A stretch of DNA of 18,655 bases from a virus. The notes beneath the pieces were generated by a model. The model made no database searches, was not told the DNA's origin, and saw nothing but the letters and a program-made list of their open reading frames with translations. Shown here one piece after another: positions 2,384 through 4,647 of the stretch (its first letter is position 1; the number at the start of each line of letters is the position of its first letter). Where the stretch lies: the UHGV virus genome UHGV-2101173; one strand, 5' to 3'. The translations under genes were made by a program, and so were the position numbers.

Positions 2384-2580
2384 TGGTTGCCTCCTTTGCG
2401 CCACATCGCATTCAGATATTTGTTTTGATTCACTGACGGAAAAGAATTTCTCTTAAGTAATTCCTCTCTCGATGGCATTGGCTTTACGCGTTGGCGAATA
2501 ATCATTTCTGCCGGAAGAATGCCGGGATTGCATGCAAGTCCTCTCATGGTAAATTCCTCAGTCATTACTGATAGCGCCAT
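2380..2580 (-). CDS. Small hypothetical protein (start ambiguous: ATG at 2580 or 2565)
   Basis: 3' part of track ORF 2380..2697. The long version overlaps the neighbouring ORF 2558..2851 in another frame, so an internal start ([10 protein letters not shown]... or MTEEF...) is more likely. No strong SD. Confidence 0.3.
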
Positions 2581-2851
2581 AGCGTGAGCGGTAATTACGC
2601 AGGCGCGGGTCAATTTCAGGGAAGTGGGTATATGTGGCTTTGCGGAATGGTCGGATTGATGTCTGGTAAATTCGCTCGCGTTCTTCTTTCTCTGCAAGCC
2701 ATATACAATGGCGAAATTCCTTTTCCTCTTTCGTTTCCTGCGGTAGCGACATTATCCGGTCGTAGTTTTTTCCGAATTTATCCAGCACCTCCAATACGGA
2801 ATTGCCGGAACAGCGGCGCGGGTCATCCGCACCATACAGAGGCGCTGGCAT
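2558..2851 (-). CDS. Hypothetical protein (97 aa)
   Basis: ORF track; ATG at 2851 preceded by SD AGGAG at 6 nt spacing; lies just downstream of the exonuclease stop. No family recognised. Confidence 0.45.
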
Positions 2852-2867: not shown

Positions 2868-3415
2868 TTATTTAGCTAACTTTTTCCAGATCGCTGAAAC
2901 GTATTTGGCTTGGTGAATGGCATCATCAAGCGCGTTGTGGCGAGTTCCTTTGAATGGCATATCTCGCTTAGGGTCGAATCCTATTGCCTTCCCAAGTTCG
3001 ACGATTGTTCTTACGTCGCGGTCATTCCACCACTGCCACGGAACTGGCTGCCCTGTCAGCGAATAACTGTTGCGGAGAATAACGCAGTCAAATGATGCTC
3101 CATTCCCCCAAACCTGAACGAATTTGTGGTTAGCGTTCTTTATGATGAATTCAGATAACCATGAAAGAGCCGTTGAGAGCTCTTGAGTGTTGCTGGTTAG
3201 CGATTTTCTGGCTTCTTCACTCTGTTCCATCCACCATAAAATCGTTGAAGCGTCAGGACGCGCCCGATATCGCATTGATGACTCAAGCGAGATATTTACC
3301 GAGAACTCTTCTCCTGTTTCTCCGGTATTCGGGTCAAAGAATACCGCCCAATAGAAATAACTGGCGCGTATGGCCCGTTGCCCATTGTTTCAAGGTCAAC
3401 CATCAAGTGATTCAT
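2868..3415 (-). pseudogene. DEDDh-type 3'-5' exonuclease (DnaQ-like), interrupted by a -1 frameshift near 3340..3350
   Basis: Frame A (3415..3296) encodes MNHLMVDLETMGNGPYAPVISIG then stops; this carries the Exo I motif D-x-E. Track ORF 2868..3275 in another frame carries Exo II (GNGASFDCVIL) and Exo III (HNALDDAIH). That frame stays open upstream as ...AVFFDPNTGETGEEF... with no start codon. The two frames join at attgggcggtattc, where a GGG run sits. Confidence 0.6.
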
Positions 3416-3423
3416 GTAAGTCC

Positions 3424-3939
3424 TTAAATTGCGTGAATAGCGTGACGAGGGAAGGGGAGAGTTACTGGTGCAAAGGGGATGTCGTCGTCAAAATCCATAG
3501 GTGGTTCGCTGTGATTTCCCTGCTGCTGAGGTTGCTGTCTTTGTTGCTGACCATTATTTCGCTGAGGTGAAGACTGTTCATTGCCTCCTTGCTTGCCACC
3601 AAGCATTTGCATGGTTCCACCAACGCCCACGATGACTTCGGTAGTGAACCGATCCTGTCCGCTTTGATCCTGCCATTTTCTTGTCCGCAATTTGCCTTCA
3701 AGATAAACCTCAGAGCCTTTTCGCAGATATTCGCTGGCAATTTCTGCCAGTTTCCCGCTCATTACCACGCGGTGCCACTCCGTCTGCTCCTTTTGCTCTC
3801 CAGTTTGCTTATCACGCCATTGTTCTGACGTAGCAACGGTAAGGTTTGCAAATGCCGTTCCTGATGGTGAATATCTGATTTCTGGATCATGCCCAAGGCG
3901 ACCAATAATGATCACCTTATTTACGCCTCTGCTTGCCAT
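3424..3939 (-). CDS. ssb: Single-stranded DNA-binding protein (SSB) with a C-terminal extension
   Basis: ORF track; OB-fold-like N-terminus, Gly/Gln-rich linker, conserved acidic tip MDFDDDIPF. The frame continues 15 codons past the tip ([15 protein letters not shown]). Confidence 0.85.
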
Positions 3940-4647
3940 TTATGCCGCCTGTTTTAGCTCGTTAACTCTGATGTTCATTACCTGAACGCATTTAGCCTGC
4001 GCCTCCTCGTTTCCAGCCATTAATTGCCAGTCACGCTGATAACGCTCGATGAGTTTTTTCTTGTCAGTTTCTGTTGACGCATAATCGCTGAAGTCTTTCA
4101 GGATTTGTTCGCAGTCAACCGATGGAGATTTCTGGTTGGTATTTTCTGGTGATGGTTTGTTATCTGATGCTGGGATTGCCCATCCCGGCAGTGATGGAGG
4201 GAGCCAGTAAAATCCTGTTCCATCCTTCAGTTTTGCCCTGTGCCACCCCTGCTTTTTATCGAGAGATGTTTGTGCGAAACCTTCCTCAAGGTTATACAGA
4301 TACCGACCGATTCCCCACTGAACGGCAGCGCGCTTCATTGCACCGGAACGACCACCTTTGACGGCTTCTACCTGCGTGTTTTCAGCAGCATCCCATTTGG
4401 TTACCCATTCGGAATCAATCTTTATTGATATGCCGCATTCAACGCCGCCGTTGTTGGGAATATCGCGGTATTCATTGCGCCATCCTGCTTTGCCGCAAAC
4501 ATCGTCCAGGCGTTTCATGATTGCCCGGTTCGTGACATAAGCCAGCACCATAGCCCACACTTTGCCATCGCGTGTTTTACCGCTTTGCTGTATTCGCCAT
4601 TCGATATCTTCAGGGCTGAATGGCTCATCGAATTTATTCAAATCCAT
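3940..4647 (-). CDS. Rad52/Erf-superfamily single-strand annealing protein
   Basis: ORF track; ...VEAVKGGRSGAMKRAAVQWGIGRYLYN... resembles the Rad52-type annealing core. Sits directly upstream of ssb. SD GAGGTG before the ATG. Confidence 0.7.
   Translation of the reverse strand: MDLNKFDEPFSPEDIEWRIQQSGKTRDGKVWAMVLAYVTNRAIMKRLDDVCGKAGWRNEYRDIPNNGGVECGISIKIDSEWVTKWDAAENTQVEAVKGGRSGAMKRAAVQWGIGRYLYNLEEGFAQTSLDKKQGWHRAKLKDGTGFYWLPPSLPGWAIPASDNKPSPENTNQKSPSVDCEQILKDFSDYASTETDKKKLIERYQRDWQLMAGNEEAQAKCVQVMNIRVNELKQAA

Follow-up and report, generated by a model that had tools for sequence, protein, structure and literature searches.

A conserved tail beyond the C-terminal tip of a lambdoid prophage SSB and of ssDNA-binding proteins from other mobile elements

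The ssb gene and its C-terminal extension

The C-terminal tip of SSB, the bacterial protein that binds single-stranded DNA, is the hub around which genome maintenance in bacteria is organised, as well as a drug target and a determinant of recombineering compatibility, and it is an accepted rule that the phenylalanine of this SSB C-terminus (SSB-Ct) must be terminal. We analyzed an ssb gene in which the phenylalanine is followed by further codons, located in the UHGV virus genome UHGV-2101173 (18,655 nt; this whole stretch of DNA is referred to here as the window). The gene occupies positions 3424–3939 on the minus strand, runs from an ATG start at 3939 down to 3424, and encodes 171 amino acids (aa) including the extension. 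It belongs to the lambdoid 'SSB-1' type, lies in a prophage recombination module and was identified from its open reading frame (ORF), from PHROG 44 and from TIGR00621, against which the product scores 184.7 bits (cut-off 53.95). The identical 516-nt coding sequence (CDS) in near-identical Escherichia coli prophages carries the PGAP label ssb.

Residues 1–112 (3604–3939) form an oligonucleotide/oligosaccharide-binding (OB) fold domain for single-stranded DNA (ssDNA) binding and tetramerisation, delimited by structure alignment, an AlphaFold2 (AF2) model and the ratio of non-synonymous to synonymous substitution rates (dN/dS); residues 1–142 align to the E. coli and Klebsiella SSB structures 1eqq and 7f2n (E ~1e-66). 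A Gln/Gly/Pro-rich disordered linker follows (residues 113–145; 3505–3603), recognized by highly variable alignment columns, by its dN/dS and by predicted local distance difference test (pLDDT) values below 50, and then the canonical acidic tip with its DDDIPF end (residues 146–156; 3472–3504). The disordered linker and the acidic amphipathic D-D-D-I-P-F motif of an SSB are accordingly both present, whereas the tip is not the extreme C-terminus with a free Phe carboxylate, 15 codons lying beyond the Phe. The Phe156 codon is TTT (3474–3472). The next codon is GCA for Ala157 (3471–3469), and the frame stays open to a TAA stop codon (3426–3424), exactly as a preliminary description made from the sequence alone had stated; that description also gave the tip, the 15 extra residues and the coordinates correctly, the strand not being stated there. 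The extra residues, 157–171 (3427–3471), constitute a discrete in-frame 45-nt cassette that stands out by its conservation and coding-type evolution, and the stop codon overlaps the TAAGGA Shine-Dalgarno sequence of a downstream exonuclease gene. The Phe156/Ala157 junction (3469–3474) is the point at which relatives carry an inserted HNH endonuclease gene, as found by comparison with HNH-carrying phages; the HNH gene is absent from the window.

The premise of the preliminary description, that a DDDIPF end with a free terminal Phe is normally the docking site for SSB partners, is sound: in partner proteins, Pro176 and Phe177 are buried in a pocket that also anchors the terminal carboxylate (PMC3152348), and in RecO the carboxyl end of the SSB-Ct is anchored by Arg132, R132A being one of the mutants that lose binding most strongly (PMC3152348). 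Because a free terminal carboxylate is the normal docking end of an SSB, an internal tip is unusual. E. coli SSB has the same OB fold, disordered Gln/Gly/Pro linker and tip as the window SSB; its tip is terminal, whereas that of the window SSB is followed by 15 conserved residues. All curated NCBIfam SSB models that reach the C-terminus stop at residue 156, the Phe: residues 4–156 align to positions 2–165 of the 165 positions of TIGR00621, and residues 1–156 to positions 1–177 of the 177 positions of NF006533. In a structure search with the window SSB, no PDB chain covered the tail. The window SSB belongs with the bacterial SSBs, and with the lambdoid SSB-1 type, yet it lacks one defining feature, the terminal tip.

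Conservation of the extension in close homologues

The preliminary description had suggested that the stop codon might have been lost, and had held that the same extension in many close homologues would speak against this. Such homologues are numerous. By megablast, the window region was matched in 415 of 5,426 complete E. coli genomes, and translations of the 516-nt ssb CDS in E. coli prophages show an identical extension. With a 107-nt probe comprising the tail, the tip and part of the linker, a contiguous tip and tail (at least 80% of the probe covered) was found in at least 317 of the 5,426 genomes (~6%). Among the 120 best homologue clusters (90%-identity protein clusters), 116 carry the tail, down to 75% identity, and these come from Escherichia, Klebsiella, Citrobacter, Salmonella and Enterobacter. 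The tail is the same in two plaque-forming phages, mEp235 and ECP1, the DNA of mEp235 being 82% identical over an 801-nt query that includes ssb, and the megablast matches to HK75, HZ41 and epsilon34 extend through the tail-coding part. The window tail is the commonest allele, present in 100 of 122 extended loci.

The prophage region is also present at 97–99% identity in two assemblies labelled E. coli DH5alpha (NZ_CP026085.1 and NZ_CM135829.1). It would not be expected in a K-12 strain, and these may be mislabelled or lysogenised stocks.

Selection on the extension

We pooled 285 sequences (the window and 284 loci), which yielded 94 unique extended genes and 33 distinct tail DNAs, and calculated dN/dS by the Nei–Gojobori method from pooled pairs. 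Among the 94 unique genes, dN/dS was 0.09 in the OB domain, 0.28 in the linker, 0.02 in the tip, where synonymous change was saturated, and 0.23 in the tail. The tip is thus the most constrained part of ssb even though it is internal. For the 33 distinct tail DNAs, pN was 0.217 and pS 0.605 (dN/dS ~0.21), and the entropies of the three codon positions were 0.65, 0.51 and 1.29, compared with 0.49, 0.28 and 1.34 in the OB domain. In two loci (L233 and L278) the tip is free and the sequence runs directly TTT-TAA-GGA, with the same post-stop sequence and exonuclease gene as in the window; the 45 nt of the tail have therefore been inserted or deleted in frame, after the Phe codon and before the stop codon. 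These data show that the extension is real: it is translated, and selection maintains it as a C-terminal tail.

Two other kinds of signal were sought at the tail. An RNA or regulatory element was rejected, as searches found no Rfam family in the window, no terminator over the tail and one promoter-like match, which was no more than in shuffled sequences. A programmed frameshift at CCC TTT G was likewise rejected on inspection, there being no canonical X XXY YYZ site in the zero frame.

Tails in integrative and conjugative elements, plasmids and other phage proteins

Three genome loci carry diverged tails (IGFGYDCSRVAIHAL, AYIGLQYPSHAIHSI and LGHGYGICRKAIYAIS). Two of them adjoin DUF3577-like genes, one also TopB, in a layout of the type found in integrative and conjugative elements (ICEs), and the third lies after a Sak4-like annealing protein. 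Of the 119 clusters returned by a protein search with the ICE form, 101 have a tail of 15–16 residues; these came from Citrobacter, Klebsiella, Salmonella, Pantoea, Erwinia, Pectobacterium, Lonsdalea, Serratia, Rahnella, Yersinia, Dickeya, Edwardsiella, Providencia and one Pseudomonas. One ICE-form SSB was confirmed to lie in a SPI-7/PAPI-1-like ICE, with TraR-like, AcaB, TopB, DUF3577 and type IV pilus genes nearby. The SSBs of MOBH conjugative plasmids of 175–219 kb have the tail VGVGYSFAKHMVMAIS after IPF, and tails are also present on the SSBs of the Pantoea plasmid pDSJ05 and the P1-like phage JK004. In the P1-like phage phi456 the match reaches the tip only, suggesting that its SSB has a free tip; published complementation work with P1 therefore probably has no bearing on the tail. 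The accessory SSBs of F/pED208-family plasmids act, as the window SSB may do, on the element's own ssDNA (PMC8406263); no post-tip tail is described for them, and ~34-kb plasmids were matched to the tip only, whereas the tails were found on MOBH and Pantoea plasmids.

Tails were further found on proteins of at least four other PHROG families (4477, 743, 112 and 2544), a count that is qualitative in that the pattern scan of viral DNA had preselected a fixed sequence. Two of these families are annotated as ssDNA-binding and two as being of unknown function: carriers in PHROG 743 are annotated as SSBs and those in PHROG 112 as Gp2.5-like ssDNA-binding or annealing proteins. The profiles of the four families stop at or before the Phe, those of PHROG 2544 and 4477 exactly at it, and the carriers include virulent phages of Escherichia, Klebsiella, Salmonella and Pseudomonas. 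In PHROG 4477, BIS47 gp17 (L291, 1364–2584) and PVP-SE1 gp39 (L292, 301–1530) have the tip and a tail ending ...[P/Q]YGRNFIHCI; the window SSB and BIS47 gp17 are similar in their last 30 residues only (67% identity, E 3e-13). Further loci related to PHROG 4477 and 2544 are L293 (601–1827), L417 (655–1602) and L352. Both profiles end in an SSB-Ct-like DDDIPF, with or without the tail; the proteins of the two families, which come from Vequintavirinae and other phages, probably bind ssDNA or mimic SSB without having been recognised as such, and the tail marks them as likely SSB-like. A tail is also present on the SSB of the Pseudomonas phage Torfinnsbu, which adjoins a Sak4-like gene, and on that of the E. 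coli Justusliebigvirus ESCO9 (Stephanstirmvirinae), which is similar to the PHROG 4477 and 2544 proteins and has no PHROG assignment.

When pooled, 90 distinct tail peptides conform to one pattern of 14–16 residues that follows DDDIPF directly, with no spacer: [A/L][P/G]-h-[G/T]-[L/Y]-x-h-x-[R/K]-x-[A/T]-[I/L]-[Y/H]-[A/S]-[I/L](S), where h is hydrophobic and the final S optional. The window tail fits the pattern of this class (14–16 residues after [D/E]-x-P-F), and the phages, ICEs and plasmids that bear the tail have no gene in common. The housekeeping ssb loci sampled served as a control: the tip is free in 77 of 80 species-representative loci, the other three being the mobile-element loci already described. 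The scan of genome contigs, which returned mostly housekeeping ssb genes, was used only for this control and as the source of the three ICE and prophage variants given above. In a library of 50%-identity representatives, other short post-tip extensions occur in a minority of SSBs. One variant of the tail, ...PALLMCM, had no match in the phage collection (tblastn). IMG/VR and the clustered protein sets are unevenly sampled. These comparisons of protein and DNA sequences show that the tail defines a large class of ssDNA-binding proteins of mobile elements, comprising phages, ICEs and plasmids.

HNH endonuclease genes at the tip–tail junction

In the phages Sf6, CurroJimenez and Huey, ssb ends ...NFDDSDIPF or ...NFDDEIPF and a stop codon, and within ~10–15 nt an HNH gene of 155–159 aa begins, which itself ends in the tail sequence. 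IME10 and N7 give a two-piece megablast match spanning ~450 extra bases, as in Sf6. Homology between the window DNA and the HNH-carrying phages resumes at the Pro158 codon (CCA GTA ...), and the left flank of the insertion is marked by a cluster of substitutions and one extra codon. In all, a gene of this family was found downstream of a free-tip ssb in 36 pooled loci (in Sf6, gp26, L003 1501–1980; also in L008 and L009), and it reads into the tail in 33 of the 36. The Sf6 record itself states that gp26 has 14 residues in common with an 'E. coli SSB'. Sf6 and ES18, the SSB-1 prototypes, have an ssb of the same type and in the same place of the module as the window, according to a survey of lambdoid recombination modules (PMC12315714); these prototypes are free-tip forms with an HNH gene downstream, whereas the window SSB has the tail and no HNH gene.

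We compared 77 homologues of the endonuclease. In 70 of these the protein ends shortly after CHxEWHKxNxP with an unrelated short end and without the tail; seven have the tail, and the five full-length ones among them are of the Sf6/Huey type beside ssb. Three HNH-bearing loci beside tail-less SSBs have no tail either. These alignments show that the tail is not native to the HNH family, and because it is absent from most of the homologues, the simplest history is an insertion of the HNH gene into an already extended ssb, and not an extension made by HNH deletion.

The same family was observed at a second target. In the Klebsiella phage NDO71, a gene with 91% identity to BIS47 gp17 over the first 372 residues ends ...MDWDEEIPF and a stop codon, and directly after this tip lies an HNH gene (orf036, L295 195–620) whose product is 51% identical to Sf6 gp26 and ends ...GEAKNAI, the tail being displaced. 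One HNH family has thus hit the position right after the Phe codon of two unrelated genes, the lambdoid ssb and the PHROG 4477 gene of Klebsiella myoviruses. Its members are present or absent at a fixed site between conserved flanks, and the tip is altered in carriers (NFDDSDIPF or MDWDEEIPF, compared with MDFDDDIPF), which is the pattern expected of homing. Sf6-gp26-type HNH genes therefore behave like free-standing homing elements that target the 3΄ end of ssb. They share with the free-standing HNH homing genes of T4-like and T7-like phages the site-specific presence and absence, the altered target side and the decay chimeras described below; they are unusual in that the insertion swaps the C-terminus of the host gene from tip and tail to a free tip. 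Insertion gives the SSB back its stop codon and free tip; in lambdoid phages the endonuclease gene runs on into the former tail, which so passes to the endonuclease.

A second, unrelated type of HNH gene (ES18 gp47, similar to T7 gp7.7) was observed directly after ssb or between the annealing-protein gene and ssb (L005 938–1459, L006 938–1330 and five loci with the latter arrangement). Mobile endonuclease genes appear to have a hotspot at the ends of ssb. We also observed chimeric proteins in which an SSB is joined to the C-terminal half of an HNH protein, or an HNH N-terminus to an exonuclease (P0131, P0134, P0144, P0173, P0180 and P0183); these look like the product of deletion decay of the inserted endonuclease gene in prophages.

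Neighboring genes of the recombination module

The window ssb lies in the early-left recombination module, between an annealing-protein gene and nuclease and anti-RecBCD genes, which is the location by which SSB-1 is defined (PMC12315714). Upstream is a gene for a Rad52/Erf-like single-strand annealing protein of 235 aa (3940–4647, minus strand; PHROG 1097, E 3.5e-130), the stop codon of which directly abuts the ssb ATG (3940/3939). Downstream lies the gene for a DnaQ-like 3΄–5΄ exonuclease (2868–3415, minus strand); PF16473 is listed for products of this gene family. In the window it is divided into two ORFs of 39 and 135 aa, a G4 run being short by 1 nt (plus-strand CCC, 3347–3349), whereas alignment shows CCCC and an intact 182-aa gene in ET826, CurroJimenez and mEp235. 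The split gene is either a pseudogene or the result of a homopolymer read error. The module is completed by abc2 (anti-RecBCD; 2558–2851, minus strand), assigned from the annotation of the homologous CDS. The TAAGGA Shine-Dalgarno sequence that overlaps the ssb stop codon lies 8 nt upstream of the exonuclease ATG (3415–3426), and this overlap, together with the abutting stop and start codons, suggests that translation is coupled along the module.

A C-terminal domain of ~60 residues ending ...ELKQAA was observed in common on annealing proteins whose cores are unrelated (Rad52-like, Sak4-like ATPase and two others); it is encoded at 3940–4120 in the window and in the upstream genes of ~180 related loci and corresponds to the Erf-type domain swap noted for epsilon34. 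This domain is a candidate SSB- or partner-docking domain. An association between tail type and this domain was seen; it is confounded by physical linkage, and the same domain is present in P22, which is reported to be without an SSB, so that we did not use the association as evidence.

Predicted structure and possible function of the tail

In an AF2 model built from an alignment of 149 sequences, the OB fold was predicted with pLDDT values of 84–89 (residues 11–100) and tail residues 158–169 with values below 50; the tail is thus predicted to be disordered. Docking of the tail on its own OB fold was considered and rejected: the strand that had suggested it in a first model is gone in the 149-sequence model, and the tail occurs on unrelated protein bodies, which makes an intramolecular role unlikely. 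The β-clamp-binding motif is QL[S/D]LF or QLxLx[L/F], with Gln at position 1 and hydrophobic residues at positions 2, 4 and 5/6. Tail residues 2–7 do not conform to it, reading P-[V/I]-[T/G]-L-P-[F/Y] with no Gln in any of the 90 variants, and the ICE-form tails read G-x-G-Y-G-h at these positions, again with no Gln. The tail may bear some resemblance to clamp-binding hexamers, the ClpX C-motif-2 and Lon tags.

The last residues of other phage ssDNA-binding proteins also dock partners. Loss of the six C-terminal residues of the HK620 SSB abolishes loading of Sak4 (PMC5928155). The tail of T7 gp2.5, with its C-terminal Phe, has a comparable role; these tails end at an aromatic residue, whereas the window SSB has a second conserved element beyond it. 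We favor the reading that tip and tail together form a portable docking peptide that is read by a host factor and changes the partners recruited by the SSB, to which we assign a probability of about 0.45. It is suggested by the combination of unrelated scaffolds, the lack of a common gene, an internal tip that is the most constrained part of the protein, a fixed spacing between tip and tail, and predicted disorder. According to this reading, tip and tail would act as one portable short linear motif read by a putative host protein; capping of the Phe carboxylate would weaken docking into pockets that anchor the carboxylate, the tail would supply a second contact, and the host partners recruited by the SSB-coated ssDNA of the element would be others, or fewer, than those of host SSB. 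The preliminary description had also proposed a variant that alters or sequesters host SSB partners, an idea that resembles the docking-peptide reading and is compatible with all of the findings.

Several observations weigh against a docking peptide. The SSBs of Sf6, CurroJimenez and the L233/L278-type loci have no tail, so that the tail must be dispensable under some conditions, a dispensability that fits a modulatory role. Synonymous divergence (dS) is 0.48 in the tail and above 1.5 elsewhere in ssb, and the exonuclease genes of mEp235 and the window have ~98% column identity, compared with 82% for the 801-nt region that includes ssb; the low dS indicates that part of the uniformity of the tail reflects recent spread with the neighboring module. 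Moreover, the dN/dS values are uncorrected for phylogeny, the preselection in the viral pattern scan biases the frequencies obtained from it, and the first AF2 model (57 sequences, mean pLDDT 55) placed a weak β-strand at residues 166–170, absent with the deeper alignment.

A farther-reaching proposal is that tip and tail are a widespread hijacking peptide of mobile elements, which, as a two-part extension of the universal SSB-Ct, would bind a single hub protein of host replication or repair with greater affinity or selectivity than host SSB can (the sliding clamp, primase, PriA, the chi subunit and a nuclease are among the candidates), so that the ssDNA of the element is preferentially processed, or is shielded; tails would differ in their second half along with the host lineage, and the homing endonuclease would toggle the state at the junction. 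We regard this as possible, if on balance doubtful.

It is also conceivable, at somewhat longer odds, that the tail is purely a cap, which would do nothing more than bury the Phe carboxylate and recruit no new partner; ssDNA would be coated without recruitment of host nucleases, helicases or RecOR, giving protection or suppression of the SOS response. The anchoring of the carboxylate by partner arginines (PMC3152348) and the anti-RecBCD protein encoded in the same module are consistent with this, whereas neither the conserved pattern of the 15 residues nor their fixed length would be required of a cap, and the constraint on the tip (dN/dS 0.02) is left unexplained, as deletion of the tip would have the same effect. 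Less probable again is a signal for turnover or handling that limits or directs the foreign SSB, either a C-terminal degron for a cytoplasmic protease, hydrophobic and rich in His and Tyr, or a type IV secretion system (T4SS) signal in the case of conjugative elements. Without exception the tails end in non-polar or aromatic residues ([Y/H]-[A/S]-[I/L]), and a plasmid SSB is translocated through a T4SS and suppresses the SOS response (PMC8406263). The possible resemblance to ClpX and Lon tags would also fit. Against this, the best-conserved tails are carried by phages, which have no T4SS, and in the tail the first half, AP[I/V][G/T]L, is conserved to the same degree as the end, which is atypical of degrons.

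We consider it highly improbable that the constraint acts on the DNA, the 45 nt being a recombination sequence at a module boundary or an endonuclease target and the peptide incidental. Mosaic megablast breakpoints at 3424 and 3472, the dS of the tail and the HNH insertion at the junction would agree with this idea; the third-position bias and dN/dS of ~0.2 among the 33 distinct tail DNAs, the encoding of one peptide pattern by very different DNAs across ICEs, plasmids and virulent phages, and the lack of an Rfam, promoter or terminator signal argue against it. Still harder to credit is that the tail is a scar, left when an HNH gene after ssb was deleted in frame and the SSB became fused to the end of the endonuclease. 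The arrangement of ssb, stop codon and tail-ending HNH gene in Sf6, CurroJimenez and Huey and the existence of SSB/HNH deletion chimeras (P0131 and P0134) would be in keeping with such a scar; we rejected it because 70 of the 77 sampled homologues have no tail, and the ...GEAKNAI end and displaced tail in NDO71, the tail-less HNH genes beside three tail-less SSBs, and the tails of ICE, plasmid and virulent-phage proteins with no HNH gene nearby also contradict it. A private loss of the stop codon, or a sequencing or assembly error, in the window, for which there speak the a priori expectation that an SSB ends at IPF and the 1-nt homopolymer deletion that attests local errors or mutations in the adjacent exonuclease gene, is refuted by the occurrence of the extension in hundreds of close and distant homologues (116 of 120 clusters, at least 317 E. 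coli genomes, and identical annotation in independent complete genomes and phages) and by its coding-type evolution under purifying selection.

Implications

In the papers searched on SSB tails, on phage and plasmid SSBs and on the HNH gene, we found no description of a post-tip tail, and none of the papers searched prints the tail sequences. The accessible parts of the DARNA preprint on the T4 and T7 SSBs and of the lambdoid recombination-module survey (PMC12315714) do not mention it, and the latter states that SSB-1 proteins 'have not been studied experimentally' (Genome Res 2025) and counts the HNH genes as probable module nucleases. The post-tip tail is apparently undescribed.

These results indicate that a large natural class of proteins, encoded by temperate and virulent phages, ICEs and plasmids, breaks the terminal-Phe rule in one conserved way, and that this class spans at least five PHROG families without detectable similarity outside the C-terminus. 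The HNH genes that have been counted as nucleases of the recombination module look, by their distribution and flanks, like homing elements at the 3΄ end of ssb. If the tail does redirect the choice of partners, as a portable docking peptide would, it would offer mobile elements a general means of keeping their own ssDNA transactions apart from those of the host.

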